DNA from: a virus
Lineage: Duplodnaviria > Caudoviricetes
Strand: one strand, 5' to 3'
Virus record (IMG/VR): IMGVR_UViG_3300046779_000565
Location: 1 to 36,665 of that record
Length of the DNA stretch: 36,665 bases
In this document: one piece after another, positions 1 to 36,665 of the stretch
How positions within the stretch are numbered: the first letter of the stretch is position 1
Layout: every line of letters starts with the position of its first letter
The notes under the pieces: model-generated
The model's database searches: none
What the model was told of the DNA's origin: nothing
Seen by the model: only the letters and a program-made list of their open reading frames with translations
Translations under genes and position numbers: made by a program

Positions 1-127
1 TAATGTTACCTGCTTGATCCATATAGTTACCGCCACCAATATCAACCAAATTACTAGCAGGCTTCATGTTGACAATGTTTTGAATTTGTGTGCCCCAACG
101 ACTATCTTTATTCAACAATCCATTAAT
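1..127. repeat. Terminal direct repeat copy 1 (identical to 36539-36665); circular-assembly overlap
   Basis: taatgttacc...caatccattaat is identical at both ends, 127 bp, and a reading frame runs through the join. Confidence 0.95.
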
Positions 128-1996
128 TTCGTCTGCTGTCGTAAAACCTTTGTCAATCTGTTGGTTAATCTTGTTTAAGTCCCAACCACTGTTATGTAAC
201 TTTAATGCATTATCTTTTGATATTCCATTATCTAATGCATTCAAAAACTTGTCAGCATATTTGTTAACTGCGGCGGATTGAATTTCATATTGGCTCAATC
301 CTTTACCAATTAACTCTTGTGCAGTAGCTTGTGATAGATTACCAATTTTAACTTGTTGACCAGCCATGCTAATGCTGTTTGCACTAGCACCATTTTGTAA
401 CATATCATTAATAACTGATTCATTGAATGGGCTTGCAGCCAAACCAGTCAATGTATTTGCTGTGATTCCAGTACTTGCTAAATCAGCTAGGTCTGTTGCA
501 GTATAACCTAAGTTAACTAAGTTCTTAACATCATTTGCAGTGTATCCTGCATTGCTCAATATCGTTGCATCCGTTGCATCTAATAAATTGGTTGCTGCTA
601 ATTGTTGTGCTGCAGGAGATAAGGTAGATAGTTCTGTTGCTGCTACTGTTGTTGATGTTATTGGTTTATAATCTACAATCTTCTGAATATCTGAACCAAA
701 TCCATAGCCTTTACTTAATATCTTGTTTACATCGTTTGCTGTTGTATAACCATTATTGATTTGATTTGAAATTTTGTCTAAGTCCCAACCATTCTGATTT
801 AATAAATTAATAGAATCGTTTGATAATCCCATACTTTTAGCATACAACATTTTATCTGCTAGACCGCTGGATGCGCCAGCCATTCTTATTTCGGAAGCAT
901 TAAAACCTTGATTAACTAATTGTTCAGCAGTGCCTTGACTTAGTTTACCCATGTTAACATAATTGCTAGCCATGCTAATGTCGTTGATACTAGCACCATT
1001 TTGCAACATACTAGTAATAGTAGATTCAGGGAATTTAGTAGCAGCTAAACTGGTCAATGTAGATCCAGTAACGCCAATACTTGCCATGTCAACTAACTCA
1101 CCTGCTGTGTAACCTAAATTAGTTAATGTTTGTAAATCTTTAGGAGTGTAACCACCTGTGGTCAATACTTCTGCTTGAGTCTTATCGACTAAGCCTGAGT
1201 TAACCATTTGGTTCTTTTGTGTATCAATAGAGCTGCCGCCAACACCACTATATGTGTTATACGCAACTTGTGCAGCACTGTTGGTCATTCCATTATCAGC
1301 CCAACCCAAAGTATCTGCAATGTATGAACCAACATTACCACCTTTGGCTGCAATAGCTGCTGCATCTTTCAACACATAAGTTGGAACAGACTCCATTAAC
1401 ATTTCTCTTGTGGTTGCTGCGTTTCTGCTGAATGCTTCGCTTGCACTTGCTCTTGCACTATCGCTGTCAGACCAACCCATCTTATCAATCAATGTGCCTA
1501 ATGGATCTTGACCACTCTTATAAATGTCTGCTAATGTATCTGGCTTAACTTGTGCAACAGCTTCTTGTGGTGTCATAAATTTGGCTATGCCGCCACTAAC
1601 AGTACCCATGACTAAACCTGCTTTGGCAGCAGTCAATACATCTTGTCCAGTTAATATAGCGCCAGTGATGCCAGATGCTGTTCCAGCTGCGGCTGCTTGT
1701 GCAATAGGTCCATAACTTGCTGCTGCTGTGCCTGCATACTGAGCAACTTGACCCATAGCTGCGCCAGTGAAACTTGCTTTAATAATATCTTTGGTTGAGC
1801 CACCTGCTGCGGCTGTGCCAGCTGCGCCACCTAACGCTCCCGCCCACACTGGAGGGATACCATAACTCATTGCAACTACACTAGTGATTGCACCAATTGG
1901 GTTGTTTTTTACAGCAGTCCATGCGTCACTAATTGTGTCACCAACATCATCAACAGTATCTTCAACAAAGTCCCAGAAGTCGTCCCATAAGCTCAT
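1..1996 (-). CDS. 5' part of a 1107-aa putative virion/ejection protein that spans the circular junction (continues 36538 to 35211)
   Basis: Missing from the ORF track. Manual translation from ATG 1996 (MSLWDDFWDFVEDTVDDVGD...; SD AAGGA upstream) is open to base 1 and in frame with ORF 35211..36656 (...NGLLNKDSRWGTQIQ...). Gly/Ala-rich hydrophobic N-terminus and an internal 202-aa duplication. Confidence 0.9.
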   Translation of the reverse strand, partial: MSLWDDFWDFVEDTVDDVGDTISDAWTAVKNNPIGAITSVVAMSYGIPPVWAGALGGAAGTAAAGGSTKDIIKASFTGAAMGQVAQYAGTAAASYGPIAQAAAAGTASGITGAILTGQDVLTAAKAGLVMGTVSGGIAKFMTPQEAVAQVKPDTLADIYKSGQDPLGTLIDKMGWSDSDSARASASEAFSRNAATTREMLMESVPTYVLKDAAAIAAKGGNVGSYIADTLGWADNGMTNSAAQVAYNTYSGVGGSSIDTQKNQMVNSGLVDKTQAEVLTTGGYTPKDLQTLTNLGYTAGELVDMASIGVTGSTLTSLAATKFPESTITSMLQNGASINDISMASNYVNMGKLSQGTAEQLVNQGFNASEIRMAGASSGLADKMLYAKSMGLSNDSINLLNQNGWDLDKISNQINNGYTTANDVNKILSKGYGFGSDIQKIVDYKPITSTTVAATELSTLSPAAQQLAATNLLDATDATILSNAGYTANDVKNLVNLGYTATDLADLASTGITANTLTGLAASPFNESVINDMLQNGASANSISMAGQQVKIGNLSQATAQELIGKGLSQYEIQSAAVNKYADKFLNALDNGISKDNALKLHNSGWDLNKINQQIDKGFTTADEINGLLNKDSRWGTQIQNIVNMKPASNLVDIGGGNYMDQAGNI

Positions 1997-2012
1997 ATTT
2001 AAATCCTTTTTG

Positions 2013-2020
2013 TATTTATT
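2013..2020 (-). promoter_or_regulatory. T4-late-like promoter motif AATAAATA
   Basis: Minus strand AATAAATA-CAAA-AAGGA-TTTAAAT-ATG(1996). Overlaps the upstream stop codon. Confidence 0.55.
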
Positions 2021-4819: not shown

Positions 4820-4827
4820 TATTTAGT
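4820..4827 (-). promoter_or_regulatory. T4-late-like promoter motif ACTAAATA within an RBS-occluding hairpin (4798-4849)
   Basis: Minus TAAAAGT..TTCCGGTA-CTAAATATAAAATA-TACTGGAA-ACTTTTA-TG. Intergenic and not a stop codon. Confidence 0.7.
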
Positions 4828-5550: not shown

Positions 5551-5558
5551 TATTTAGT
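5551..5558 (-). promoter_or_regulatory. T4-late-like promoter motif ACTAAATA within an SD-occluding hairpin (5537-5565)
   Basis: Minus TCCCTT-AACTA-AATAC-TAGTT-C-AAGGAGA-CTATT-ATG. Confidence 0.7.
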
Positions 5559-5572: not shown

Positions 5573-6652
5573 TCAAAGTTTACGCCAAATATCTAAACTG
5601 TTTTCTTGTAGTTTATTAACATATTTCAGTCCATCGTCACTGTAAGACTGATTGTATAGTTCTTTTATTTTACTTACTGAATCTTTACTGTTGACTTTGT
5701 GTACAAATTCAAAGTTATCTGACCAATCTTGTGTGTCTAACACAACTACAGGCATGTGACCTACACACTCTAAAAAACTGAATGGGTAGTTTTCTATCAA
5801 ACTACAGTTGAATGATACTTTACAACTTTTGATAAAATCTACTTTATCTTTACCCGTGATCCCCGTTTTAATCTCATAGTTTGTTATGTTATTTTCATTA
5901 AACGCTTTTATAAACTTCTTTTCCCCATTTTTATTAGTCATAACTTTGCAGGGAAGTTGTAGTTCTTTCATTGTTTTTATATACTGTTCTGGGTTCTTGC
6001 CCACTTCCCATCTCCCAATAAACAATACCCCTTCTTTGTGTTGATTACTTTTAGTCAATAGTTCTGTTTCGCTCATGGGCATGGGTAATACTTCTACATT
6101 TTTAATATTTTGTTCTAGTAATTTGTTTTTGTTTCGTTCTGACTGTGTACCCACAATCACATGATTAAAATGTAAAAATTGACTGTAAAATCTATGATAT
6201 GCGGGTAAGAATACATCATGTATTTTACTGTCAGGGTAGATTTGCTTGTACAAATGTGTGTAAAGTATAACTTTTGATTGTGTATCTATTGTAGTGATTG
6301 CTGCAAATGCTTCTTGACTATTGACTACAATATAGTCATATTTGTTGTTTTCCAGTATACTGATGATGATCTGTTGAAAATTGATAATTTTCTCATAATT
6401 GACAGTTTCCCCGTACATAAAGATATTTTGATGCTTATTGTAGCTCAAAGGTTTATGATTGTATATGAGTTTGGTTAATCCAAGATTAACACAGAAACTA
6501 TAGATAAAACTATTTGTGGGCTTTTTGTCTACAATAATGTGAACTTCATTCCCGAAACTTTCTTGCATTTCTGTGAAACTTTTACAAAAAGACCCGATTC
6601 CACCGTGGGGTATCAAGTGTTGGTCACTTATTATAAATGCGATTTTTTTCAT
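5573..6652 (-). CDS. Glycosyltransferase, GT-B fold, GT4-like (359 aa from ATG 6652)
   Basis: N-terminal IAFIISDQHLIPHGGIG, VLFIGRWEVGKNPE, and ENYPFSFLE (E-x7-E) motifs. Confidence 0.85.
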   Translation of the reverse strand: MKKIAFIISDQHLIPHGGIGSFCKSFTEMQESFGNEVHIIVDKKPTNSFIYSFCVNLGLTKLIYNHKPLSYNKHQNIFMYGETVNYEKIINFQQIIISILENNKYDYIVVNSQEAFAAITTIDTQSKVILYTHLYKQIYPDSKIHDVFLPAYHRFYSQFLHFNHVIVGTQSERNKNKLLEQNIKNVEVLPMPMSETELLTKSNQHKEGVLFIGRWEVGKNPEQYIKTMKELQLPCKVMTNKNGEKKFIKAFNENNITNYEIKTGITGKDKVDFIKSCKVSFNCSLIENYPFSFLECVGHMPVVVLDTQDWSDNFEFVHKVNSKDSVSKIKELYNQSYSDDGLKYVNKLQENSLDIWRKL

Positions 6653-6912: not shown

Positions 6913-7845
6913 CTAGGATCCATGCTTTCTAGTCAAATTAAAGCGCCACATATTGCAGTTTAAGCGTTTCATCAACTCGATAGCCTTTTTATCCGTCATA
7001 AAGCTATCAAAACCCTGCTTATACAGTTTGTCCAAATTGACTTTTTTGGTACGCAAATCGCTGTCGGGAGCCGAAATCTGTTGTACAATCTGTCTATATT
7101 CAGCCGAAGTTAAACCCTTACTTTTACATAAAATAGCTAGACTTAGTGCGTCTGAATAGTGTAAATCACTACCCGTTAATAGTGTGTGAAACATGCTTTG
7201 AGCCAACGGATTTCTACCCTGAAAACTGGGTTTTTCAGTCTGAATGTGTGTATTCAGTTCTTTTTCGGGCAGTATCATACCGTCGAAAAGTTCACCTTTA
7301 TTATGATGAATAAACTTTATATCTTTGTTGTCTTTTGAATATGTGGGTAAGTAAAAACACTGACTGATCGTAAAACTAGCACCGTCTACGCCCAATATTT
7401 CAACCATTGAATCGTGTCGTTTGTCAAACTCTGTGTTTGTCAGTGGTTCTTTTAATGGTATGACCAATCTGAACTTTTCTTTGTTCAAACTGTTTGAGTG
7501 TGTAGAATAGATTAAAAACTCATAGTTTTGCCAAAGTTGTATTGATTCTTCTAATGTTTGTGTACCATCTACATCTAATAACAAACAATAGATTTTGTCC
7601 ACATTTTCTTTGCATCGTCTGATAAACTCTGTGTTGGGCCTAGAATCTTTGACTGTTTCTGGAGATAGATAGTTTTCAGTCTTGTAGCTACAGCAATTAA
7701 AAAGATGACCACTTGTTTTGTCTATAGTTTCCTTTTGATAGTCTTTGAAGAATTCTACAAGTTCATCAAAAGTACATTGTATTTGGTCGTCTTTATGAAC
7801 ATAAGCCTCGTAGATAGAATTGTATATACATAAATTAATTAGCAT
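6913..7845 (-). CDS. AEP-superfamily primase / primase-polymerase (310 aa)
   Basis: LLLDVD (DxD), YSTHS...KFRLVIPL and D...SQCFYLP motifs, plus a helical PriCT-like C-terminus. Confidence 0.8.
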   Translation of the reverse strand: MLINLCIYNSIYEAYVHKDDQIQCTFDELVEFFKDYQKETIDKTSGHLFNCCSYKTENYLSPETVKDSRPNTEFIRRCKENVDKIYCLLLDVDGTQTLEESIQLWQNYEFLIYSTHSNSLNKEKFRLVIPLKEPLTNTEFDKRHDSMVEILGVDGASFTISQCFYLPTYSKDNKDIKFIHHNKGELFDGMILPEKELNTHIQTEKPSFQGRNPLAQSMFHTLLTGSDLHYSDALSLAILCKSKGLTSAEYRQIVQQISAPDSDLRTKKVNLDKLYKQGFDSFMTDKKAIELMKRLNCNMWRFNLTRKHGS

Positions 7846-9562
7846 CTTTTAACTTCTTTAACTTCTCTAATAATGTTTCTGCTGGAACTAAGTTAGTTTC
7901 TTTTGGAATGATTATTGGGTCAGATTTTTCTTCATTGTCAAAGTCTCTCAAGTTTAATGTTTCTTTGGTCAGTGTTTTGTTTTTATCATATGCTACTGAT
8001 GATATTAGACTATAATCAAATTCTTGATATTGATCCGACAATCTTCTTACTTTCTTCTTTAGTAGATCTCCTGTGAAACTTCCTTGCCAAGTAATCTTAG
8101 TTCTTGCGTCTGCATTTTGTACATTTTTAATACCTTTTCGTGATAAAAAGTCATCGAACTTTTCACTGAACTTGTTACCTTTAATCTTGATATCAAGCAT
8201 TACTTCTGCAATCTGTTTCAAAAAATCATATGGTATAATGCCTTGATCCAAAAAGATTGGTAACACTTGTTCAAACACTTCTTGATATTGATCTTTTTGT
8301 TCTTCGATTCTTTTATCATAATCATCACCATGTAACGCAAGCAATGTAGTCATATTGTGACCGTCATGCTTTTGAACTAAGTGACTAAAATGTTTTGCAA
8401 TTTCTAATCTGTTCTCAACATATTCTGTTACAAAATACTCTACTAAAGTCTTGGTTTCGTGCAATGTAATATTATATTTCTTACTCAAATAATCAAGTAA
8501 AACAAGTTCAGTTGCAATGATTGACCATCTACGATCTTCACCACCGATGCCTCCTCCTACAAGTTTAACAATACCTGTGTTGTCAGTAACAATTAAACTG
8601 AAAGTTGCATCGACTGTATAAGCATTTACGCCTTTGGGTTCAATTCTGATTTCATTAGAACCTGTTGACTTCTTCATTGATGCGTGTGGAAATTGTTTTT
8701 CTTCTTCATCATCTAAGTTGATAATGATTCTACCTTCCCAAGCACTGTTAAAACCTCCTGAAAGTTCTTTGATATCACCTTTATATACTGAATTGGGAGT
8801 AAACAAACTAGCTAAGTATGCCATGAAGATACCTTTACCATTACCACCCGGTTTACCTGTGATGTTAAGATGTGGAATAGTGTGACACTTTTCTGGATGT
8901 AATCGTTTCATCACAATCCATTTTTCTAAGTGCTCAATATTTTCTTGTTTACCACCACACAAACAATAGAACAAATCATCAAACAAATCATTGTAATTAA
9001 TGTCTGTTGTTATTGGTGCCCAGAATTCTGACTGCACTTTCAAACTATTGAACACAAATTCTTCATTCCATTTGCTTGCGTGAAAGCTACTAGTTTTGAT
9101 TTGATAACTTTTACCTGCTTTCTCAAACACAGTTCGTAAGTCGTCCTCTGTAAAGTTGCTAAACTTACCTGGACTTCTTGCCATATTGTTTAACATACCT
9201 TTCAAATGTTGATATGTTACAGTTTCTTCTTTTAAGTTTACTCTGCGTGGATCTTTAGAATAGTCTGTGATTAACACATACTTACCATCACTTGCGATGT
9301 AAGCAATGTGATTGTCATTGATAAGATTCATTAATGAATCTTTTGCTGCACCTTTTACTTGCGATTCAATGTCCTCAAGTTCTTCAGACAATTGAGTAAT
9401 TTCTTGATTAGACTTATCAATCTCAGATTGTATTGCTTTTTTAACATCATCTGATTTTTCTTGTGCTTGCTTTTTAATGTACCTTCCAATATCATCTTTT
9501 AATACATTGATTCTAGCTCTAATGTTTGTAGCTGAGTTCTTTGGATTCAATGATTCGTTCAT
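7835..9562 (-). CDS. SF3 (D5/NrS-1/DUF5906-like) replicative helicase with N-terminal coiled coil (575 aa)
   Basis: Walker A GKPGGNGKG, Walker B IINLDDE, IEPKG..AY, motif C IVTDN, arginine finger DRRW. Confidence 0.85.
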   Translation of the reverse strand: MNESLNPKNSATNIRARINVLKDDIGRYIKKQAQEKSDDVKKAIQSEIDKSNQEITQLSEELEDIESQVKGAAKDSLMNLINDNHIAYIASDGKYVLITDYSKDPRRVNLKEETVTYQHLKGMLNNMARSPGKFSNFTEDDLRTVFEKAGKSYQIKTSSFHASKWNEEFVFNSLKVQSEFWAPITTDINYNDLFDDLFYCLCGGKQENIEHLEKWIVMKRLHPEKCHTIPHLNITGKPGGNGKGIFMAYLASLFTPNSVYKGDIKELSGGFNSAWEGRIIINLDDEEEKQFPHASMKKSTGSNEIRIEPKGVNAYTVDATFSLIVTDNTGIVKLVGGGIGGEDRRWSIIATELVLLDYLSKKYNITLHETKTLVEYFVTEYVENRLEIAKHFSHLVQKHDGHNMTTLLALHGDDYDKRIEEQKDQYQEVFEQVLPIFLDQGIIPYDFLKQIAEVMLDIKIKGNKFSEKFDDFLSRKGIKNVQNADARTKITWQGSFTGDLLKKKVRRLSDQYQEFDYSLISSVAYDKNKTLTKETLNLRDFDNEEKSDPIIIPKETNLVPAETLLEKLKKLKDAN

Positions 9563-10146: not shown

Positions 10147-10270
10147 GTAGCCCCGGGGGCGAACCCGGGGACTACTGTTTGACAATATTAGGAATAATAC
10201 ACATCGTCACAATGTGTATTGTATTTATCATTGATGTGTCAGCGCACACTTTTCCCATCAATGACAAATA
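10147..10270 (-). ncRNA. Structured leader or small RNA with three hairpins
   Basis: Stems at 10147-10175 (GC-rich), 10196-10220 (AATACACAT/ATGTGTATT) and 10222-10270 (15 bp; its single mismatch is G-U on the minus strand). Confidence 0.5.
10222..10229 (-). promoter_or_regulatory. T4-late-like motif GATAAATA
   Basis: Intergenic, immediately upstream of the 10196-10220 hairpin. Confidence 0.55.
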
Positions 10271-10271
10271 T

Positions 10272-10299
10272 ATTTTAACATAAGTATTTAGTATGTCAA
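10272..10299 (-). promoter_or_regulatory. Sigma70-type promoter TTGACA-N16-(TGn)TAAAAT with ACTAAATA embedded in the spacer
   Basis: Minus TTGACA TACTAAATACTTATGT TAAAAT, pointing into the replication operon. Confidence 0.7.
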
Positions 10300-10867: not shown

Positions 10868-10875
10868 TATTTATC
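10868..10875 (-). promoter_or_regulatory. T4-late-like motif GATAAATA driving the double-hairpin RNA
   Basis: Just past the stop of the holin-like gene, with no minus-strand gene recognised downstream. Confidence 0.65.
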
Positions 10876-11088
10876 TTACTTTTTGTTGTAAGTTTTTTCT
10901 TCTATCCTTAATATAGCGTTTTCGATACGGCTCATTTGCTTTTCTGATTCTTCTAGTTGCTTGTTTACAACAGCTACCTTTTTATCTATTTCAGTTACCT
11001 TTTCGTTCATAGTCAGGTAACCACCCCCACCAATTCCACAAGCACTGATAACGATCCAAGATAGTTGTTTTGAGGTAAAGTCTATCAT
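10876..11088 (-). CDS. Single-TM plus coiled-coil membrane protein, holin-like (70 aa from ATG 11088)
   Basis: LSWIVISACGIGGGGYL hydrophobic segment then heptad repeats; last gene of the structural operon. Confidence 0.55.
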   Translation of the reverse strand: MIDFTSKQLSWIVISACGIGGGGYLTMNEKVTEIDKKVAVVNKQLEESEKQMSRIENAILRIEEKTYNKK

Positions 11089-21659: not shown

Positions 21660-21687
21660 AATATTCTCCTTAAAATGTAATTAGGCT

Positions 21688-21695
21688 TATTTAAC
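21688..21695 (-). promoter_or_regulatory. Late-like motif GTTAAATA upstream of the MCP
   Basis: Overlaps the scaffold stop codon; weaker match. Confidence 0.45.
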
Positions 21696-22839: not shown

Positions 22840-22859
22840 TTCTATTTTCTTTCTTTAAA

Positions 22860-23201: not shown

Positions 23202-23205
23202 ATTG

Positions 23206-23213
23206 TATTTATA
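23206..23213 (-). promoter_or_regulatory. Exact T4 late consensus TATAAATA
   Basis: Minus TATAAATA-CAAT-ATG in an 18-bp intergenic gap. Confidence 0.75.
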
Positions 23214-23219
23214 CCTATA

Positions 23220-25502: not shown

Positions 25503-25525
25503 GGTTTAAAGACCCTTTTAATCTA

Positions 25526-25687
25526 TTATTTATCGTTTTCAATTTGGTCTTTTTCAGTCGTTTTCTTGTCGTTATGTTCTTCTTTAATGGCTTTTTCTTT
25601 GTCTTTTTTACCAAAGATTCTGTCCCAAGACTTAGCAAACTCTTTCTGGTCAACTTCAAACGGCCTAGCGCGGCTACCTTTACCCAT
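25526..25687 (-). CDS. Small conserved-type phage protein (53 aa, MGKGSRARPFEVDQKEFAKSWDRIFGKK...)
   Basis: SD GAGGAG and a recognisable GKGS..RP.....F...WDRIF pattern; replaces track ORF 25495..25737. Confidence 0.75.
   Translation of the reverse strand: MGKGSRARPFEVDQKEFAKSWDRIFGKKDKEKAIKEEHNDKKTTEKDQIENDK
25527..25534 (-). promoter_or_regulatory. Late-like motif GATAAATA upstream of the portal
   Basis: Encoded by the final codons GAT AAA TAA of the 53-aa gene, 24 nt before the portal ATG. Confidence 0.55.
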
Positions 25688-25697
25688 GTATTTCTCC

Positions 25698-25979
25698 TCA
25701 TTCGTATTTTAATATAAAAAATGTCTTTTCTGGACAATCTGTAGGATATAGTTCATTAGCTACATCTCTAACACTATTGAATTCTTTTCCATCAATTACC
25801 CATTTAGGTTTTGGCTTCATCATAGCTTGATTATATTGCTGAGCCAACATATTTTGTGCTTGTTGACTATTGTAACCATTCAGCATACCTTGATAATTTG
25901 ATTGTCCCATATTTTGATTGTTATGTGCGTTCCCATATGTAAACGAACCACCTAACATACTTCCTAAACTTCCAAACAT
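25698..25979 (-). CDS. Hypothetical protein (93 aa)
   Basis: SD AAGGA; N/Q-rich N-terminus and a W.IDGKEF C-terminal domain. Confidence 0.7.
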   Translation of the reverse strand: MFGSLGSMLGGSFTYGNAHNNQNMGQSNYQGMLNGYNSQQAQNMLAQQYNQAMMKPKPKWVIDGKEFNSVRDVANELYPTDCPEKTFFILKYE

Positions 25980-25989
25980 TTCTATTCCT

Positions 25990-27603
25990 TTATTCGTTGG
26001 GATTATATGCTTTCTTCCAAGCTGGTCGATTACTATAATCTTTCTGTATATATCTATCTCGTTGTGCTCTCATTCTTTCACTAGGAGTGCGATTGTCCCA
26101 TGGCTCTGCTATTCCTTGTAGACAACCTAGTATAGCATATCTACAACTATCGATACAATCATCTGGGTCACTGAATCTGCCTTTTTCGTCAACGAAATAG
26201 TTTTGTGCTTCTGATAAGAAATGTGTACAGTTTTCGTTTACCATTAATGATCCAACTTCTAGCATCTGACGCATTTGGTTGATACCATATGCTTTGTGAT
26301 TCGTAACTCTACCCTGACTATCAGGTGGATTCATTATCGCTTTTTCGTAAACATTAAGTTCATAACTTTCAAACAACTCTCTGATACTATTACTCGACAT
26401 TGTATAACGCCCAGATGTTGAAGCGTCTGCTGGTAAGACGATAGGAGTTCCAAATACTTCTGGTCTGAGTAAGTGATTGATGTACTGGGTTGGAACAGCT
26501 TCCTCAACACCTTGTACCACAATTTGTCTATGTAAGTATGCAGTTTTTTCATTTGGTTCCCAATATACTAAACTAATAACTGTTTTATCATTTACAAGTC
26601 CCAAGTCAAGTGCAATAATGCGATGTATATTTGGTAGTCTTGTAAAGTCAATTTCACCTGTCTTATATGTAGGCCAGTTACTAAGTTGAAACACAGCACC
26701 TTTACCCATAACAGGTTTACCAGCAATACGAGCTTCACGCTCATGCGGTAAGTAATCTTTTTCTAATTGTTTTCTTGTACTCATCAACAAGAATGGTTGA
26801 CCCCAGGGATCATATTCTGGACAATCGTCCCATGACACACGAATGTATTCATATCCTTCTTCGTTGTTCCAGAACTTACTAACTAGTCCGTTCAAGCCTT
26901 TTAGTGGTGTGAATGAACATAAGACCTTGCCCTGTGTTGTTGCCGTACGAGTAACGATTTCACTGAAAAAGTCATCTGGCGGTTGTTCGTCAAACACGGC
27001 AAGATTCAACTTGAAACCTTGTAACTGACGAACTTCTTGTGTATAGTTAGCAAATAACAAATAGCTTTTAGCGCCACTAACATGTTTGATTTCACAACCA
27101 ATACAGTTTGCACCATCATTACGCATTGTATCAGTTACAATACATGCTCTTGGTATAGCGCCAGTGCCCAAGTTTTCTTGTATTTTAATATCTTGTGTAC
27201 CCAATAGTTCGTTTTGTAATACTAATGCGACTTGACTCCAGCCCTCACCAGCAACCATACAAGTGATTGCTTTATCAAATCTATGACCTTCCCACCAATC
27301 GGGATATCTGCCAGTCAAATGCATTGCAGTTTCATAGCAGGTACTAACTGTTTTACCAATACGGTTTGCAGCTAGAATACCCCTACGCTCACTATTGCCT
27401 GTTTTAAAAAACTTTAACTGATGTTCAAATGGTCTGAAGTACTTTAATTGGTCATACATCATATCATCAGCTATTTCTATTGCCAGATCCTGAAGTTGAT
27501 TCTTCAATGGACCCGGAATAGTTTTTAAACTATCAATAGTAAGTTTGTTTTTATCAACAACATAACGCAAGGCTCTAGCAACAAGAGTCTCTTGTCCAAT
27601 CAT
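25990..27603 (-). CDS. terL: Terminase large subunit (537 aa)
   Basis: Walker A AANRIGKT, Walker B AVFDEQP, motif III SFTP, nuclease DLG...D and DDCIDSCRYA. Confidence 0.95.
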   Translation of the reverse strand: MIGQETLVARALRYVVDKNKLTIDSLKTIPGPLKNQLQDLAIEIADDMMYDQLKYFRPFEHQLKFFKTGNSERRGILAANRIGKTVSTCYETAMHLTGRYPDWWEGHRFDKAITCMVAGEGWSQVALVLQNELLGTQDIKIQENLGTGAIPRACIVTDTMRNDGANCIGCEIKHVSGAKSYLLFANYTQEVRQLQGFKLNLAVFDEQPPDDFFSEIVTRTATTQGKVLCSFTPLKGLNGLVSKFWNNEEGYEYIRVSWDDCPEYDPWGQPFLLMSTRKQLEKDYLPHEREARIAGKPVMGKGAVFQLSNWPTYKTGEIDFTRLPNIHRIIALDLGLVNDKTVISLVYWEPNEKTAYLHRQIVVQGVEEAVPTQYINHLLRPEVFGTPIVLPADASTSGRYTMSSNSIRELFESYELNVYEKAIMNPPDSQGRVTNHKAYGINQMRQMLEVGSLMVNENCTHFLSEAQNYFVDEKGRFSDPDDCIDSCRYAILGCLQGIAEPWDNRTPSERMRAQRDRYIQKDYSNRPAWKKAYNPNE

Positions 27604-27962
27604 TATTCGTTCTCTACTGGATAGTGTTGGTTCATAATACTTAAGTAGTATAGACCATGACTCAATGCTAAGATTTCATCAGGTTTACCACTCCAAGTTT
27701 CTGTATCTGTTAAATCACTAGGCTTTTTGGTTAGTAATGCTTGTAAGCGTTCTGCTGTCAATCTCATGCAATGTTCAATCTGACCAGGAAAGCGTTCTTT
27801 AAATGCTTCTCTATGTGCTTTATTAACTTTCTGAAGAATAATAGTATCTTGTACCATTTTTTCTTCTTTAATTTTTCTTGCATGAAGTATTTCTCTGTTG
27901 CGAGAATTTTCAGGTATATTGGTCTGAGTACCATCAGTACGCATTATCATTTTAGATCCCAT
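27603..27962 (-). CDS. Hypothetical helical protein immediately upstream of TerL (possible small terminase)
   Basis: Size and position only. Confidence 0.55.
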   Translation of the reverse strand: MGSKMIMRTDGTQTNIPENSRNREILHARKIKEEKMVQDTIILQKVNKAHREAFKERFPGQIEHCMRLTAERLQALLTKKPSDLTDTETWSGKPDEILALSHGLYYLSIMNQHYPVENE

Positions 27963-28756
27963 ACATTATTCAATACTGAATTATCAACTGATAAGAATTC
28001 TCTATCAATCCATACATCCCATTGATTTGATTTGTTAACCTTCTTAGTCTGCATCAACGCTCGTAGTCTTTTACCTTGTGGTGTTAATGTACCATCTTCA
28101 CGCATAATAACTTGTTCGCCTGTACGAGGATCAATCCACTTGATAATTTCTGGTACAACTTTACCATACTTGTTAATCTTCTCACCATGTGGTACTTGTT
28201 CTAATGGACCTTGAATTTCATATGAAATCATACCATTATCATACTTGCGAAAGACCATGTGTACTTTTTTATCTTGCGCTCTCATCGCATCATCTGGGTG
28301 AGGAATTGTTGGGCAATAAAAACTGTTTTGTAATTGATTGCGTGGTGGCAAAGATTTATCTCTTGCTGGTTTTGGTTTTAGTTCTTCAACTGGAACTAAT
28401 TCTGTTTTATCAATATATGGGTTATTGTCGCCCAAGAATACTGGATCAACTTCATCACCATTTAATACATCCATAGCAACTTGATACTTGAGTTTGTTAG
28501 CACGACCTTTTAAGTTGAGGACAATGCCAGTTTCGTCAAATACGAATCGTTCAAGTTCTTTTGCTGTTGGGAAGTCAGTCATTAGACCCTCTAAGTCAAA
28601 TTGAATAGAGTTTAATGATTTTGGTTGTTGTGGTTTTGTTTTCTCTATAACTTTTTCTGCTTCTTCAGCAAATGTTTCTGTTACAGAATCTGTTGGAGTT
28701 ACATCTGGTTGATCCCAGATATTTTCTTGAGGTTGTTTTGTTGTTTTCTTTTTCAT
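27947..28756 (-). CDS. Hypothetical protein (269 aa)
   Basis: Long ORF with SD AAGGA; no recognised motif. Confidence 0.8.
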   Translation of the reverse strand: MKKKTTKQPQENIWDQPDVTPTDSVTETFAEEAEKVIEKTKPQQPKSLNSIQFDLEGLMTDFPTAKELERFVFDETGIVLNLKGRANKLKYQVAMDVLNGDEVDPVFLGDNNPYIDKTELVPVEELKPKPARDKSLPPRNQLQNSFYCPTIPHPDDAMRAQDKKVHMVFRKYDNGMISYEIQGPLEQVPHGEKINKYGKVVPEIIKWIDPRTGEQVIMREDGTLTPQGKRLRALMQTKKVNKSNQWDVWIDREFLSVDNSVLNNVWDLK

Positions 28757-28829: not shown

Positions 28830-28837
28830 TATTTATC
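28830..28837 (-). promoter_or_regulatory. Late-like motif GATAAATA
   Basis: Overlaps the stop of 28833..29114. Confidence 0.5.
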
Positions 28838-30234: not shown

Positions 30235-30390
30235 TTATTTATCACTTCTTTTTTTGGCTGTTTTGGCACTCTGTTTGAATGCCTTTGCTGTTGGAGCGCC
30301 TTTAGTACCAGGTTTACGCATCTTTTCACCAGAGCCAGCTTTTATTCTTTCTCGTTTGGCGTGTATGTTAGCGTATAATCCGTTTTTCAT
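30235..30390 (-). CDS. Small basic protein (51 aa, MKNGLYANIHAKRERIKAGSGEKMRKPG...)
   Basis: Manually found; GLYANIHAKR...MRKPG.KGAPT pattern familiar from phage genomes. Confidence 0.8.
   Translation of the reverse strand: MKNGLYANIHAKRERIKAGSGEKMRKPGTKGAPTAKAFKQSAKTAKKRSDK
30236..30243 (-). promoter_or_regulatory. Late-like motif GATAAATA
   Basis: Final codons GAT AAA TAA of the 51-aa gene, 5 nt before the next ATG. Confidence 0.6.
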
Positions 30391-30391: not shown

Positions 30392-30757
30392 TTAATCTTT
30401 CTTTATACCTGTCAGTTTTGCTAACGCATCTGCAAAAGCGATTTGCTTTGCATCGATATTCTCTTGGCTATCTGTAACTTCAATCTTAGCCAAATGAATC
30501 ATTACTTTATTCAATATTAAGTTGTGATATTTCATAGTTAAATGGGTATCTCCCCTAGTTCTAGCTTGTAAAAAATCATCAACTAACAATTCTTCATAGT
30601 TTTTACCACCTGATTGAGTTTGAAGTTTTTCAAGTAACCCTTTAATAGTTACACTTTCTCCAACCCCTTTTGGTCTGCCTGCTCCCGGCATTTTGCCACC
30701 CTTTTTCTTCAAAGGTTGACCTGTTTTCTTATTCAATTTTGTGCTGTTCTGTTCCAT
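30392..30757 (-). CDS. Terminase small subunit-like protein (121 aa)
   Basis: KKGG..PGAGRPKG N-terminal motif; first gene of the packaging/head operon. Confidence 0.6.
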   Translation of the reverse strand: MEQNSTKLNKKTGQPLKKKGGKMPGAGRPKGVGESVTIKGLLEKLQTQSGGKNYEELLVDDFLQARTRGDTHLTMKYHNLILNKVMIHLAKIEVTDSQENIDAKQIAFADALAKLTGIKKD

Positions 30758-30770
30758 ATAAATATTTATT
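30757..30770. promoter_or_regulatory. Overlapping divergent late-like promoters: TATAAATA (+, 30757-64) and AATAAATA (-, 30763-70)
   Basis: Palindrome ATAAATATTTAT at 30758-30769 between divergent genes. Confidence 0.75.
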
Positions 30771-31314: not shown

Positions 31315-31370
31315 AGTTAGAAAGACGCAAAATCTGCTGGGTTCTTGATAGCACTTTTGGCGTCTTAACT
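31315..31370. terminator. Imperfect hairpin between convergent genes
   Basis: AAGACGC-AAAA..TGCT / AGCA..TTTT-G-GCGTCTT pairing. Confidence 0.4.
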
Positions 31371-31801
31371 TAATCTAATGTAGCACGAAGCATCCAAATA
31401 TGCTTTGCTAGTGCTAAAATTCTATCTTGTGCATAATTACTAATCTCTTGATGACCTTCTTCTTCACTAATTGCCATTAATTCTTCATAACATCCTTTTA
31501 GATGTTCCAAATCATCTTTAACTTCACTAATTAAGTATTCGCTTGAACCATCTAAAGGTGTTGTTGGCAAATGTGTATCAACAATTACATCTTGTAAACT
31601 GCATGGCATCATTGCTTGTAATGTTCTGAGTAATTCGGCAAGCATATCGATTTGATCTTGCAAATCTTCATAAACTTTTTGTAATAATTTATGGTCACTA
31701 GCAAAGTTTCTACCCATAATGTTTACATGAGCAACATGGCTACGGTAGTATGCTGCAAAGTTGTCATTAAAGACTTGTGTTAATTGTGTTGTTGTATTCA
31801 T
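31370..31801 (-). CDS. dps: Dps / mini-ferritin family protein (143 aa)
   Basis: Y..SH.AHVN..G.NF...H...YE......DMLAE and KHIWMLRA match the Dps signature. Confidence 0.88.
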   Translation of the reverse strand: MNTTTQLTQVFNDNFAAYYRSHVAHVNIMGRNFASDHKLLQKVYEDLQDQIDMLAELLRTLQAMMPCSLQDVIVDTHLPTTPLDGSSEYLISEVKDDLEHLKGCYEELMAISEEEGHQEISNYAQDRILALAKHIWMLRATLD

Positions 31802-32473
31802 TTAGAAACTTCCTGGCACTACTGGGCCCATAACTTTTTCAAATGCTTTCTTGCGAATAGCTGATTTCATTCTTGCATCTTCTTCTAATATTGCTCGTTC
31901 TTGTGGAGTAACATTACCATATGGCATATTAGCAACAGCTTTCATTTGATTAGCTGCACCTGCGCTACCTTGAGTACTTGCTTCACCTCTTTGTACTTGA
32001 GCAAATGGATTACTTTCTAATCCTGGAGCATTTGGATTCTGACGAATTTGTTCTTGTTCATATGCTGCCAATGAATATGGTAAAGTGAATAGATTTTCTG
32101 GAGCTGCAATTGGGCTTAATATCTTTTGCACGCCTGATGCAGTCATTCCACTAAGACCTTGACCAAATGCAGGATGACCGCCAAAGTATGCTTTAGCTGC
32201 TTGTACAGGATTTGTTAAGATTTCTTTTCTACCTGCAGGACCAACTTGTGTTACTAAGTTTTTAGCAATATTAGCAGCGTCACGCATACCGCCTGTTAAA
32301 TCATATGCTGCTTGTGCATATGGTTTTGCTGCGGACATTAATCCTTGAACAGCAGTAATATCACCAGGTGCTATAGGCTGTTCTACAGTCGTAGGTGTAC
32401 TGGACAAATACTTATCAGGATCAAATTCTGATTCTGTTTTTGCTAGATATTCATCTGGATTGAAATCACTCAT
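31802..32473 (-). CDS. Putative internal virion protein (223 aa)
   Basis: Duplicated FNPDEYL/FDPDKYL N-terminus seen in ejection-type proteins; operon position. Confidence 0.6.
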   Translation of the reverse strand: MSDFNPDEYLAKTESEFDPDKYLSSTPTTVEQPIAPGDITAVQGLMSAAKPYAQAAYDLTGGMRDAANIAKNLVTQVGPAGRKEILTNPVQAAKAYFGGHPAFGQGLSGMTASGVQKILSPIAAPENLFTLPYSLAAYEQEQIRQNPNAPGLESNPFAQVQRGEASTQGSAGAANQMKAVANMPYGNVTPQERAILEEDARMKSAIRKKAFEKVMGPVVPGSF

Positions 32474-34443
32474 TATAGTCCCAATCGTTGTTTGATTTGT
32501 CTTGATCTTGGATCATTAGGATTTTTATTAGCCCATTCTAATGCTTTTTTATCTTCAGTAGTTAGTTTACTTTCAGTTTCGCTAGGAGTACCATATTTTG
32601 CTGGTTGACCTAACTTCTCTCTGTTTCTATCAATGCCGCGTTGAATAATTTCTTTAAAATCTGTTGCTGCTGCTTTGAATTCTTTTTCAGATTGTGATGT
32701 GCTCATGCGTTGAATAGCTTTCGTAGCGGCATCACCTTCTTGGTTACTCAATGATCCCATACCACGCAAGTTTTCTACAGCTTGCAAGAAACTTTGTCCC
32801 TTAATTTCATTGAATCGTGCAGCCCAATCGCTAGTATCAGTACCTTCGATCATGCCAGCAATCTTACCCGCGCCTGGTAATGGTACTGATCCCACATTAG
32901 CTACACCAACACTAAAACTAAAGCCTGGATGAGTTACTAATTCATCCATTTTGTTAATCAAGTAGTCTGCATTAGTTTCTGCTTTACCTTGATTGACTTT
33001 TAATTTACCTAAATCAACACCTTCTTCTTGTGCTGCTTCTTTTTGTTTAGTCTTTTGTGCTTCAATATCAGCTCCAGTTGGTCTACCACCTAATCCAGCA
33101 CCTGCTGTTGGTGTAATAGGTGCTACTGGCATACTTGGACCTGCAGTAGCTTGCAATTGTGGGTTGACACCGCTGAATGGACTAGGTCCGGGTGCAACAG
33201 TTGCTTGTTGTTCTAATGGAACTCTTTGTGGAGGTGTTAACTTGACGCCGCCGCCAGGTAATGCTTGCGCTTGTGGTTGAATTGTAGGTGCTTGTTGAGC
33301 TGGAGCTTGTTGAGCTGGAGCTTGTTGAGCTGGAAGAGCTTGTGGGCGTTGATTTAAATTCTGTGGAACTTGTTGAGTTTGCAATCCAATTTCACTAGGT
33401 TGTACAGGTTGAATACCTTGTGCAGCCAATTGTTGATTATATGGACGAAGTATTGCAAGTTTCTCTTCCATAGTTTTGCCAGCAAGTTTAATGTTTAAAT
33501 CTTGTATAGCACGACCACGCATATCTTCTAATGTGCCAGTACTAGATTGTGGTCTGAAGCCGGCCATTGGTTTACGACCAGTATCAGTTTGAACATATGT
33601 TCTACCTGTTTTCTCGTCTGTTACCATTCTACCAACTTCGCCAGTTTTATCATTAACATATGATCCACCAACAATGTTTAGTTTCTGTGTACCGCCACTT
33701 AAACTAGAAAGTTCTTTACTAGATAAAGACTTTCCTGTTTCAGCATTATAACCTTCTATAGGTAAACCATCAGCACGGACTTTGTACAAGACATTACTTG
33801 TTGTACCAGTTTTTTCATCATAAACTTGTTGTGTTTGCCATTTAGCTCCCACGCCTAATTTAGCAGCTTCATCTCGTGCTGAGTTTTCCATACCCAACAA
33901 ACCATACATAATTGCTTTACCCCAATTACCTTCAGTTGAACGAGCATTTAACATCTTGTTCAAATCTTCTGGTGTTGCAGTCTTAATATATTGAGTTGCT
34001 TTGTTCTTCTCGTATTCCTGACGCATCATATCACTTAACTGTGCGCCTGCTATTTGTCTTTGCTCAGGTGTATATTGACTATTGGTGTAAATCTCCCACA
34101 TTTTCTTTTGGTCATTTTGACTATCAGTTAATGCTTGTTGAAATGGAGTTGTTTGTTGTTGTATTTCTTGTCTAGCCTGTGGAGTAATCTCGACTTTAGT
34201 AGGAGTCATAGGCATAGTAGGTGCTGTAGGCGATACTGGTTGAGTAGGACCTGCAACAACTGTAGGTTCGCCTGGAGTAGGTAATTGACCTATCTGAGGA
34301 GGTTGCTGAATTTGTTCAGGACTAATTGGTGCTTCAACAGGTAATCCACTTTGAAGCGCAGCTAATCTATCTTGTTCTTCTTTTCTTTTGCGTTCTTCTT
34401 CTAATGGATCAATTTGTTGAGAAATTGAGTAATCGTTAATCAT
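32473..34443 (-). CDS. DNA ejection / transfer protein, P22 gp20-like C-terminus (656 aa)
   Basis: GQSFLQAVENLRGMGSLSNQEG...SQSEKEF motif; P/Q-rich linkers. Confidence 0.7.
   Translation of the reverse strand: MINDYSISQQIDPLEEERKRKEEQDRLAALQSGLPVEAPISPEQIQQPPQIGQLPTPGEPTVVAGPTQPVSPTAPTMPMTPTKVEITPQARQEIQQQTTPFQQALTDSQNDQKKMWEIYTNSQYTPEQRQIAGAQLSDMMRQEYEKNKATQYIKTATPEDLNKMLNARSTEGNWGKAIMYGLLGMENSARDEAAKLGVGAKWQTQQVYDEKTGTTSNVLYKVRADGLPIEGYNAETGKSLSSKELSSLSGGTQKLNIVGGSYVNDKTGEVGRMVTDEKTGRTYVQTDTGRKPMAGFRPQSSTGTLEDMRGRAIQDLNIKLAGKTMEEKLAILRPYNQQLAAQGIQPVQPSEIGLQTQQVPQNLNQRPQALPAQQAPAQQAPAQQAPTIQPQAQALPGGGVKLTPPQRVPLEQQATVAPGPSPFSGVNPQLQATAGPSMPVAPITPTAGAGLGGRPTGADIEAQKTKQKEAAQEEGVDLGKLKVNQGKAETNADYLINKMDELVTHPGFSFSVGVANVGSVPLPGAGKIAGMIEGTDTSDWAARFNEIKGQSFLQAVENLRGMGSLSNQEGDAATKAIQRMSTSQSEKEFKAAATDFKEIIQRGIDRNREKLGQPAKYGTPSETESKLTTEDKKALEWANKNPNDPRSRQIKQRLGL
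33290..33334. repeat. 3 x 15-bp tandem repeat encoding PAQQA
   Basis: gcttgttgagctgga x3. Confidence 0.9.
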
Positions 34444-35186: not shown

Positions 35187-35204
35187 TTTTTGTTCCTTAT
35201 TCTA

Positions 35205-35212
35205 TATTTATT
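35205..35212 (-). promoter_or_regulatory. Late-like motif AATAAATA
   Basis: Minus AATAAATA-TAGAAT-AAGGA-ACAAAAA-ATG(35186). Confidence 0.6.
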
Positions 35213-36665
35213 ATGGTCTAACAGGGGCTGTTGTAGACCCTACTAATGGATAGTACATGCCCATTGCTTGTAATATCTGTTGCGGTGTTGCACTTGTTTG
35301 TCTTGTTTGTGAACCCCAGGGTTGACTTGGAGCTGCAGGAACAGTATTGTATAATTGTGCATTGAATTCAGGACCAGGCTGATATGGATGACTGCCCCAG
35401 AAGTATTGTGCTTGATTTGGACTTGTTGTTTGATAGTATGGAGTAGGTGCTATCCAACCTGGATTCAAGCCTGTTGGGATATTGACTTTGATTGGGTCGC
35501 CAACTTTATAAGTTCCATAATGATAGTTGCCTGTAGGATTATTAGGATCAGTAGGCACTACAATTGGTACGATAGGTGTTGTTGGTGTAGTTGTATCTGT
35601 TGGCATATTAGTATTATCCGTTGGTGTTTCAGCTTGTACTTCTGGAATCTTTGGTTGTTCTGGAATAACTTCAGTACCAGGTTGACTTAATGGTGGTTGC
35701 TGTGGTGTTGTAGTTGGTGGTGGTGTTACAGTACTAGGGCCTGTGCCTATTGTGCCAGTACCAGTTCCAGTTCCACCTGTTGATGTTCCGGGAATACCGC
35801 CTCCAGTACCGCCTCCAGTACTTACGCCACCACCGGTTGTAGGTACTGTTGTTGTAGGTACTGTTGTAGTTATTGGTGGTACAATTGGAGTCTTAGTTTG
35901 TTGACCATTAGTTGTAGCTTGACCAGCAGTTTCACCAACGCCACCATTTGACAAATCAGTATATCTTACTGAACCATCAGTATAATGGTCAATCTTATAA
36001 TTTGTTCCATTTGCTGTAATGTTATTTGAATATGTTAGTGTGCCACCAGGTGCAGCAACATTAGTTATTGTACCTGTGCCTGTTGGTTGAGTTGCAGGAG
36101 CAGTAGCTACTGGAGCGACTGGGGCCGGAGTAACTGTTGGGGGAACAACAATAGGAGTTATTGGTTGTTGTGGTTGTGCAGGTTGTTGGAATGGTGATAC
36201 TGCTTCTGCTATAGGCTTAACCCAAGCATTACTGTTTGGATCGTAGTATGCTCCAGCTATTCTTGCATTTGCTTCTGCTGTTGTAGCTAATTCTGTACCT
36301 GCGGGTAATGGACCTTTTAGACTGCTAGGTGCATCTAAGTACGCTGGTACACCAGAAAGTTGCATAGCAACATTACCGCCACCTGGCTCACCCACAATAG
36401 TTGTAGCTTCTGCTGGCGACATACCACTAGCAATCAGTTTATTATAAGTTGCTTCTTGTTCTGCGGTATAAGCTGAAGCAACTTGATTTGCCGGTCCGGG
36501 CTTAATCGCAGCTTGTGTAATCTTACCAGTTGCATCAGTAATGTTACCTGCTTGATCCATATAGTTACCGCCACCAATATCAACCAAATTACTAGCAGGC
36601 TTCATGTTGACAATGTTTTGAATTTGTGTGCCCCAACGACTATCTTTATTCAACAATCCATTAAT
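35211..36665 (-). CDS. 3' part of the 1107-aa junction-spanning virion protein (P/T/G-rich linker region)
   Basis: In frame with ATG 1996 through the terminal overlap; the track start at 36656 is an artefact. Confidence 0.9.
   Translation of the reverse strand: MNGLLNKDSRWGTQIQNIVNMKPASNLVDIGGGNYMDQAGNITDATGKITQAAIKPGPANQVASAYTAEQEATYNKLIASGMSPAEATTIVGEPGGGNVAMQLSGVPAYLDAPSSLKGPLPAGTELATTAEANARIAGAYYDPNSNAWVKPIAEAVSPFQQPAQPQQPITPIVVPPTVTPAPVAPVATAPATQPTGTGTITNVAAPGGTLTYSNNITANGTNYKIDHYTDGSVRYTDLSNGGVGETAGQATTNGQQTKTPIVPPITTTVPTTTVPTTGGGVSTGGGTGGGIPGTSTGGTGTGTGTIGTGPSTVTPPPTTTPQQPPLSQPGTEVIPEQPKIPEVQAETPTDNTNMPTDTTTPTTPIVPIVVPTDPNNPTGNYHYGTYKVGDPIKVNIPTGLNPGWIAPTPYYQTTSPNQAQYFWGSHPYQPGPEFNAQLYNTVPAAPSQPWGSQTRQTSATPQQILQAMGMYYPLVGSTTAPVRP
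36539..36665. repeat. Terminal direct repeat copy 2
   Basis: Identical to 1-127. Confidence 0.95.

Follow-up and report, generated by a model that had tools for sequence, protein, structure and literature searches.

A complete small freshwater podovirus with probable T4-type late promoter boxes, a candidate parasite of jumbo phages

How does a small phage turn on its virion genes when those genes are preceded by probable T4-type late promoter boxes and no sigma factor can be recognised in its genome? The question is raised by virus record IMGVR_UViG_3300046779_000565 (36,665 nt; here called the window), for which a first-pass annotation had proposed dependence on a co-infecting T4-like phage for late transcription. 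The genome had been taken as closed, which a 127-bp overlap of its ends confirmed, and annotation identifies the window as a complete, circular 36.5-kb podovirus with nearly every gene on the same strand. The window is small and of freshwater origin, and with 19 relatives it makes up a clade of 20 whole genomes.

The full virion gene set described earlier (capsid, portal, terminase, tail, and fibre genes) was recovered in the window. Profile annotation placed a head and packaging module on the minus strand at 19860..28756, comprising an SU10-type capsid (20487-21659), a probable scaffold (21691-22839), an SU10 portal (23220-25502), terminase (25990-27603), and a conserved 269-aa protein, c4. 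Tail and fibre genes occupy 11090..19847 (minus), with repeats and a C-terminal fibre domain common to jumbo phages, and a Dps/ferritin-like protein (31370-31801) and probable ejection proteins lie within 31370..34443 (minus). A primase (6913-7845) and an adjoining SF3/D5-type helicase (7835-9562), both minus and unmentioned in the first-pass annotation, form a pair (6913..9562) that includes no DNA polymerase. A 70-aa membrane and coiled-coil protein (10876..11088, minus) gave a weak spanin match (E 1.6e-4), with no endolysin adjoining it. As had been claimed, sigma factor, RNA polymerase, clamp, polymerase, integrase, and endolysin all went undetected in the window at the level of Pfam and PHROG annotation; the label GNAT for ORF 30793-31284 found no support in either database. 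No integrase was found among 161 family representatives, and no host-flanked contig was evident among 80 metagenome matches, the longest of which was about 40 kb, barring one duplicated 67-kb contig. The gp55, gp43, and T4-type virion core that define T4-like phages (Straboviridae, Arenbergviridae) were not found in the window.

All 14 minus-strand positions listed previously do carry TAAATA, and the plus-strand copy does start at 30757. The word occurs 16 times on the minus strand (additionally at 1996 and 17256) and 5 times on the plus strand. Exact TATAAATA was verified at minus 23206-23213 and plus 30757-30764 but in only these 2 of 15 sites; the consensus is [A/C]TAAATA rather than TATAAATA, with conservation upstream of the core limited to M at -1. 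At the level of this core, the boxes resemble T4/gp55-type promoters, in which a TATAAATA-like box precedes virion genes with no -35 element. Enrichment over background proved to be positional: a genome-wide excess was rejected, the count not exceeding the 15 to 32 copies expected by a Markov model, while start zones held 12 copies in 3,589 positions versus 4 in 32,944 elsewhere (Fisher p=1e-9). TAAATA ranked first of all hexamers before gene starts, above Shine-Dalgarno words, and was present in 12 of 39 upstream zones versus 5.3 +/- 2.1 (maximum, 13) across 1,000 dinucleotide shuffles. A whole-genome excess was likewise absent from a reversed-pattern control on five large contigs. Nine boxes are independent of stop codons, as stated before; at 2013, 21688, and 28830 the TAA doubles as the stop codon of the upstream gene, two boxes overlap a stop by their final TA, and one comes after a stop.

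Enrichment of TAAATA in start zones was observed in all 20 whole clade genomes (7- to 71-fold, p<=2e-5) and at 62 of 80 clade capsid loci. Sister podoviruses of the MW202484.1 type have the gene order of the clade and capsids 60 to 65% identical to it. They differ in encoding SSB, Sak, RusA, a replication initiator, and an endolysin and in having no such motif: enrichment was seen at 0 of 80 loci, and TATAAT ranked high instead. Among seven whole sister genomes, G046 showed mild enrichment (p=0.002), and another reached p=0.027 on 2 matches. In an unrelated 32-kb siphovirus lineage, TAAATA was found at 80 of 80 loci (15-fold).

Box-to-ATG distances form a bimodal distribution, with one class near 11 nt that lacks a Shine-Dalgarno sequence and another of 23 to 35 nt that has one. 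Among 261 clade sites, 57 lie 10 to 13 nt before ATG (39 of them at 11), 4 at 14 to 21, and 121 at 23 to 35; the Shine-Dalgarno share is 14% in the class at <=13 nt and 83% in the far class. Four control hexamers gave just 1 to 2 sites at 10 to 13 nt. The T4 late box is described with its A at -12 (PMC7892883), which puts +1 eleven bases past the T. In sequence spacing, the peak of leaderless sites 11 nt past the T would fit a gp55-type start 5 to 6 nt past the box, and the bimodal pattern resembles the geometry of a gp55-type promoter. The leaderless peak stems from about five gene families, whose sites are not independent.

The boxes lie on the minus strand unless stated otherwise. Two TAAATA copies (1996..2018) precede a 1,107-aa ORF that spans the circle junction (1996 to 1, continuing to 35211). 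Boxes were present in 20 of 20 genomes both at 35205..35210, 24 nt upstream of gene 34446-35186, and at 28830..28835, which heads the c4-c10-terminase operon. The portal is preceded at 30 nt by 25527..25532 (14 of 21 portal genes), and virion gene 2909-4798 is preceded at 27 nt by 4820..4825, a site of the Shine-Dalgarno class that relatives keep at one of two paralogues (20 of 40 genes). A box 34 nt upstream of the capsid gene, whose TAA is the scaffold stop (21688..21693), occurs in only 3 of 20 genomes. Shorter ORFs are served by 5551..5556 (25 nt upstream of ORF 5109-5531), by the exact TATAAATA at 23206..23213 (10 nt upstream of ORF 22860-23201), and by 30236..30241 (11 nt upstream of small basic ORF 30078-30230). 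Two overlapping boxes on opposite strands (30757..30768) serve a divergent pair, of which 30392-30757 (minus) is boxed in 15 of 19 genomes and 30793-31284 (plus) in 17 of 18. At the site where one box had been said to restart transcription after the capsid terminator (20426..20463), the terminator-like hairpin at 20442-20463 has a GC stem and T tract and is conserved in relatives; a terminator scanner did not flag it. The box behind it (20426-20431) lies 11 nt before an ATG without a Shine-Dalgarno sequence, the same gene is boxed in 17 of 19 clade genomes, and we predict a leaderless restart of the tail operon here.

Early control differs in detail from the first-pass annotation, since the phage keeps a strong sigma70-like promoter together with its own primase and helicase. 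This promoter (10272..10299, minus; TTGACA-16-TG-TAAAAT, 11/12), the best in the scanned 4.5 to 24 kb, heads the early primase/helicase operon and holds TAAATA 10285-10290 inside its spacer, a nesting also seen in G009, G017, G020, and G022. A second TAAATA of this region lies at 10222..10227, and another (10868..10873), past the last late gene, faces it; both are on the minus strand.

Searches for a sigma factor of the clade's own were negative. With phrog_234, none of 32 clade records yielded a gp55-like sigma, nor did any of 25 with sigma profile phrog_12791; the best E value among 6,447 six-frame segments was 0.14, and HH comparison of 47 families gave a top sigma probability of 1.8%, versus 94.6% for a control. 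A highly divergent sigma or activator could slip past profile searches, and the majority of small ORFs belong to no family. Among the universal genes of unknown function, c4 and c10 were rejected as candidates: both also occur in the motif-less sisters, the model predicted for c4 is beta-rich without a fold match, and an atlas search with c10 gave no usable match. Structure prediction covered one window protein. As for lysis, GH19 or lysozyme endolysins were found in 24 of the 29 sisters and in none of 22 clade genomes.

The best-matching helper candidates are freshwater jumbo phages of about 350 kb from the PA5oct/Atu_ph07 lineage, which is related to T4. Jumbos G066, G084, and G085 carry a gp55-like sigma and show the motif and spacing of the window: TAAATA ranks first among upstream hexamers (p 1e-32 to 2e-73), at the bimodal distances of the clade. 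In G066, the box lies ahead of 14 of 21 virion/lysis genes but of only 3 of 21 genes of replication type (p=0.0013), and in a PA5oct region it is enriched before virion genes (p=4e-5). The late sigma of PA5oct is encoded at 70783-71625 of NC_071039.1; the main text of the PA5oct paper gives only TATAATA/TTGAC promoters. The base at -1 is C in 52% of clade sites versus A in 56 to 67% of jumbo sites. Late sigma, polymerase, and endolysin, all undetected in the window, are carried by G066; the window phage appears to lack, as a satellite does, essential functions that a larger phage could supply. The role proposed for gp33 and gp45 was not supported, as neither was detected in the best-matching jumbos (gp45 profile, 0 of 4; gp33, 0 of 3), where divergent forms could escape. 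The related jumbo CBB is described as having gp55 without gp33/gp45, with ATAAATA before structural genes and as the late motif of CBB/GAP32 (PMC5259590). A 150-kb T4-like fragment with gp55, gp45, and the motif (G001) was judged a poorer candidate: its sites form no Shine-Dalgarno class, T is more frequent at -1, and a single DNA match links it to the clade.

The window has 2.7 kb of DNA in common with the jumbos. Its glycosyltransferase gene (5573..6652, minus), whose 449-aa relatives (53%) sit on jumbo-phage contigs, matches three jumbo records at 72 to 74% nucleotide identity across about 320 bp, and fibre stretch 13054-13398 is 72% identical over 347 bp to jumbo phages; fibre matches between clade and jumbos are partly low-complexity repeats. 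Of the 20 clade genomes, 11 have a jumbo-type gene for an 88-aa protein; the other 9 have a fibre repeat of jumbo type, which neither 8 sister genomes nor 80 sister loci contain. The jumbo homolog of the 88-aa protein matched 15 of 50,697 phage records, all of 284 to 490 kb; the predicted fold (pLDDT 92) had no clear structural match (best Z 5.0). Eleven of the 20 clade genomes have <200 bp of DNA in common with 7 jumbo records. The sisters share jumbo genes too (GH19, 40%; a 116-aa tail protein, 65 to 67%; a 66-aa protein, 47 to 71%), so that shared genes are evidence of a common pool rather than of dependence. A fibre search of viral contigs hit a generic domain common to many phages and was uninformative, a second fibre matched none of the phage records, and a LamG gene search gave no matches.

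We consider it probable that the window phage depends on a jumbo helper, building its own particle and borrowing late transcription and probably lysis; host RNA polymerase carrying the jumbo gp55-like sigma likely reads the [A/C]TAAATA boxes as late promoters. This argument draws on conservation, the sister-clade contrast, spacing geometry, endolysin loss, and gene sharing with gp55-bearing jumbos. The first-pass reading of a gp55-type promoter, no sigma, a T4-related helper, and an own particle thus appears to stand, without its gp33/gp45 and consensus components. That TAAATA is instead a by-product of AT richness, stop codons, or translation initiation is exceedingly improbable: the genome-wide count is at Markov expectation and TAA can be a stop, but 231 of the 261 sites are not stop codons, TAAATA is enriched 19-fold versus <=3.3-fold for each of 18 single-base variants, and the box tracks gene orientation at the divergent pair and sits just behind a terminator. 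A host sigma reading TAAATA, shared by small phages and jumbos without mutual dependence, would account for a motif common to two unrelated small lineages; it is nevertheless very unlikely, since jumbos of the lineage described from different hosts encode gp55 and have the motif ahead of virion genes (PMC5259590; PA5oct), canonical TTGACA/TATAAT sites are present in the jumbos (112 of 773 genes) and in the window, and sisters of the same gene pool lack the motif.

An autonomous phage with an unrecognised sigma or activator of its own reading TAAATA, like other phages with single-box late promoters, is quite unlikely. SU10/phiEco32-type relatives encode their own sigma and many ORFs have no family, but all four sigma tests were negative, no early gene family is present in more than 13 of 20 clade genomes, the two universal candidates are shared with motif-less sisters, and neither the loss of endolysin nor the occurrence of the motif in the unrelated siphoviruses would be explained. 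Facultative use, in which a slow cycle runs by read-through from the sigma70 promoter and a co-infecting jumbo only boosts it, is unlikely as well. The one-strand circular layout makes read-through from the strong early promoter geometrically possible, primase and helicase are encoded, and one relative (G020) retains a recognisable endolysin, of the M15 type; against this, a conserved terminator follows the capsid gene with a box directly behind it, no antiterminator was found in the window or the relatives' annotated families, 19 of 20 genomes have no recognisable endolysin, and three circular relatives have no recognisable primase or helicase.

With jumbo dependence as the preferred reading, the absence of a detectable sigma or lysis enzyme suggests that the cycle is likely finished only in jumbo-co-infected cells. 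After entry, host sigma70 would transcribe the small operon of early genes for primase and helicase; this may allow the DNA to persist without integration. The sigma of an infecting jumbo would then activate every virion operon, with leaderless mRNAs from some of them, and the jumbo endolysin would free the progeny of both phages. Co-infection might, speculatively, be secured by episomal waiting or hitchhiking.

Virophages such as Sputnik and mavirus build their own virion, rely on giant virus transcription, and share its late promoters. The window phage would combine an own virion with helper transcription in the same way and is probably their bacterial counterpart, functioning like a virophage without being one. 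Unlike virophages, it has a bacterial host, a tailed HK97-type particle, and no virus factory, and its head genes are those of Caudoviricetes rather than the double jelly-roll of Maveriviricetes with a nucleocytovirus helper. P4 late promoters answer to the P2 activator Ogr. Like P4, PICI, cf-PICI, and PLE, the window phage has a primase-helicase replicon and apparent helper dependence; those elements integrate and steal capsids or tails, whereas no integrase was found in the window and both head and tail are encoded. The Streptomyces phage satellites MiniFlayer and MulchRoom are described with their own capsid and packaging genes and a virulent helper, MiniFlayer lacking an integrase and having its own tail fibre; no primase is described for them, and the main text does not use the word promoter (PMC10690885). 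Unlike them, the window encodes all virion parts of a podovirus together with a primase and a helicase, and it has predicted late promoters of helper type and a 350-kb T4-related jumbo as candidate helper. Late promoters of T4, which use gp55, gp33, and gp45 (PMC7892883), and of CBB/GAP32 share with the window boxes a single -10-like box, no -35, and equal spacing; the window differs in its [A/C]TAAATA consensus, in the sigma gene being undetected in the box-carrying genome, and in gp33/gp45 being undetected in candidate helpers.

Hyperparasite systems are described as few (PMC13359090), and a 2026 review asks whether jumbo phages have undiscovered parasites (PMC13282480). In the literature searched, which did not extend to subscription papers, we found no small phage described as using the late promoters of a jumbo. 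The clade is a concrete, widespread candidate for such a parasite, and the helper lineage has cultured members (PA5oct, Paride, and Atu_ph07). Phages of this kind would seem autonomous to annotation tools and never plaque alone, so that culture would overlook them and virome ecology would miscount them. It is moderately likely that an abundant freshwater guild of structurally complete small phages, of at least two origins (podovirus and siphovirus), lives as obligate parasites of PA5oct-like jumbos. Such a guild would have given up its own late control and lysis, with virion genes wired to the jumbo sigma, and bacterial virophages would be recognisable by promoter words alone, a test applicable to every metagenomic phage.

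Co-occurrence, proposed earlier as a check, gave a partial answer: sample overlap with jumbos was weakly higher for the clade (8 of 59) than for the sisters (3 of 71; p=0.066), and contigs of the jumbo lineage turned up in each of 4 sequencing runs, the possible source of the window among them, examined without a negative control. A host search with a small jumbo protein gave no match in 301 genomes, and the search of genomes for hosts returned two short MAG contigs with conflicting labels. Relatives of the window capsid, sisters counted in, were found in 553 viral-contig stretches, and the siphovirus lineage was found in 232.

The window is a closed genome whose ends overlap by 127 bp, with a 1,107-aa ORF spanning the circle junction. 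Profile searches identified the virion genes of a podovirus (SU10-type capsid and portal, terminase, and tail and fibre proteins), as well as a Dps-like protein, a primase, an SF3/D5-type helicase, and a glycosyltransferase; ejection proteins are probably encoded too. Profile searches of the window gave no hit for a sigma factor, polymerase, clamp, integrase, or endolysin, in line with the first-pass annotation, which had described a closed genome lacking these genes in recognisable form. Reads from one metagenome run, a possible source, covered positions 4500 to 11500 without a break, and the early region accordingly shows no sign of being a chimera. The glycosyltransferase gene looks like an accessory insert, and a close strain in run X3 departs from the window exactly at the TAAATA box at 5556, on the glycosyltransferase side. 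In the control region, a perfect GC hairpin (10151 to 10170) and a variable noncoding stretch (10196 to 10375) may represent an origin or a terminator. Among relatives, proteins of the probable ejection region carried extra domains (AAA ATPase, endonuclease V-like, and Hint) in the sequence stretches L196 (15950 to 18607), L191 (13155 to 14156), and L175 (3663 to 6782). The gene labels scaffold, TerS-like, and holin-like are putative.

All of the TAAATA sites that the first-pass annotation had listed were present. It had named enrichment over background as the check on this motif, and enrichment held by position and not by total count: the number of copies in the window was ordinary, but 12 copies lay inside start zones (the stretches before gene starts) versus 4 outside (p = 1e-9), TAAATA was the top-ranked hexamer, and 12 of 39 zones carried it versus 5.3 ± 2.1 in shuffles. 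Nineteen complete or near-complete relatives, selected among 80 capsid-linked loci on the length of their contigs, together with the window, gave 20 clade genomes, in which genes were called with our own simple ORF caller. Start-zone enrichment was found in 20/20, and the box preceded the same genes across the clade: c4 (a conserved 269-aa protein heading the terminase operon) and gene 34446 in 20/20 each, the gene downstream of the capsid terminator in 17/19, and both members of a divergent pair. Over the 80 loci, the consensus was [C/A]TAAATA, with no conserved sequence at the −35 distance within the columns examined (−12 to +19). Enrichment was 19-fold for TAAATA versus at most 3.3-fold for any of its 18 single-base variants.

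Distances from box to ATG were bimodal, at 10 to 13 nt without a Shine-Dalgarno sequence and 23 to 35 nt with one, and the gap between was almost empty. The T4 late box has an A at −12 (PMC7892883), which would put the start site 11 nt downstream of the T in TAAATA and, in the near class, on the A of the ATG; leaderless mRNAs are therefore predicted. We infer that the TAAATA box is a promoter. The only strong sigma70-like site between 4.5 and 24 kb of the window heads the early operon and has TAAATA within its spacer. At 30757 to 30768, two boxes overlap face to face; one gene has both its ATG and its predicted start site inside the opposite predicted promoter. The leader from box to c4 is long (28756 to 28835; 49 to 85 nt among relatives), contains a possible hairpin, and may be an RNA element.

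A sister clade, defined by the closest annotated record (MW202484.1), keeps the gene order of the window's clade, has 60 to 65% capsid identity to it, and separates from it with 100/100 support. TAAATA enrichment was found at 62/80 clade capsid loci versus 0/80 sister loci and, mildly, in one of seven whole sister genomes (p = 0.002). Sister genomes encode SSB and Sak (7/7) and RusA and a replication initiator (6/7). A GH19 or lysozyme endolysin was present in 24/29 sisters versus 0/22 clade genomes, and a scan of 161 family representatives of at least 60 aa returned a single endolysin, in clade genome G020. Early gene families were each confined to 13 or fewer of the 20 clade genomes, and a profile scan found no recognisable primase or helicase in three circular ones.

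Relatives of the window glycosyltransferase, at 53% identity, occur on contigs of up to 357 kb. Following one of them led to fragments that, by CheckV rating, come from ~350-kb genomes. It also led to G066, a jumbo phage related to T4 that encodes a capsid, a portal, a polymerase, a GH19 endolysin, and a gp55-like sigma nearest to that of PA5oct-like phages. Among 34 records reached by a fibre-repeat pattern and examined, all six larger than 100 kb carried this gp55-like sigma. TAAATA was the top upstream word in G066 and in the complete jumbos G084 and G085, with two spacing classes as in the clade; in G066, it preceded 14/21 virion or lysis genes versus 3/21 replication-type genes (hand-picked classes). 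It was also enriched in a 50-kb stretch of virion genes from cultured PA5oct (L619, 60001 to 110000; p = 4e-5), where the top upstream hexamers were TAAATA and then TAAGTA, neither listed in the main text of the PA5oct paper. The gp33 and gp45 co-factors that had been proposed at first found no support: profile searches of the candidate helper jumbos were negative for both, in agreement with the related jumbo CBB, which has gp55 but neither gp33 nor gp45 and carries ATAAATA ahead of its structural genes (PMC5259590). In a T4-like 150-kb fragment (G001; L408 to L415), TAAATA lay mostly 11 to 13 nt before the ATG, almost never with a Shine-Dalgarno sequence. A 75-kb phage rated 78% complete (G093) carries a fibre repeat of the jumbo type, gave no match to the jumbo sigma, and is possibly a further parasite.

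The window and jumbos have 2,736 bp of DNA in common (best matches, 72 to 76% identity); sisters share 0 to 378 bp, as do 11 of 20 clade genomes. In those 11, a 97-aa jumbo gene has a homolog. That jumbo gene matches only 15 of 50,697 phage records, every one of them a jumbo of the PA5oct/Atu_ph07 lineage. The remaining nine clade genomes carry the jumbo fibre repeat. Since sisters share other genes with jumbos, gene sharing points to a common host pool and not to dependence. Co-occurrence with the jumbos, another suggested check, gave weak evidence. The 88- to 97-aa protein common to the 11 genomes and to PA5oct/Atu_ph07/SCTP-2-type jumbos (L196, 3763 to 4026; L417, 1976 to 2266) gave a confident model with no clear fold match in structure comparison; it is a candidate helper-interference or mimic factor.

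Given the motif, its conservation and geometry, the gene absences by profile, and the links to gp55-bearing jumbos, we consider it fairly probable that the window phage depends on such a jumbo as helper. The jumbo sigma would read the boxes, the dependence would be obligate, and lysis would be borrowed from the jumbo. That the jumbo sigma is used facultatively is unlikely. A very divergent sigma or activator of the phage's own seems marginally less likely still, although SU10/phiEco32-type relatives encode their own sigma. Nothing was found with two PHROG profiles run on the clade, with a local profile across all six reading frames, or when 47 families were compared profile to profile, whereas the controls did score. 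The best-conserved unknown protein was rejected as a sigma candidate; its predicted fold is beta-rich, and it is also present in the motif-less sisters.

Also against a private factor, an unrelated lineage converges on the same word. G107 (L598 to L599; IMGVR_UViG_3300037041_000104), a linear 32-kb siphovirus rated 94% complete, has head and tail genes unrelated to those of the clade, yet TAAATA is enriched (p = 2e-6). No sigma, polymerase, primase, or endolysin was recognisable in 41 of its 42 ORFs scanned, and it has 1 kb of DNA in common with jumbos. At capsid-linked loci of its type (L620 to L699), the box was in the start zone of 80/80, a 15-fold enrichment. This lineage is probably a second jumbo parasite, and the use of the jumbo's word by two separate lineages is more in keeping with a borrowed sigma than with a hidden private one in each. 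Reading of TAAATA by a host sigma is improbable, and an artefact is very improbable.

P4, whose late promoters respond to the P2 activator Ogr, is a further comparison for the window. Unlike P4, PICI, and PLE elements, it has a full virion gene set, and no integrase was found. Our search of the openly accessible literature found no report of a small phage using jumbo late promoters in this arrangement. The window would work like a virophage, as first proposed, but does not belong to the virophages proper. It resembles MiniFlayer, a nonintegrating satellite with its own capsid (PMC10690885).
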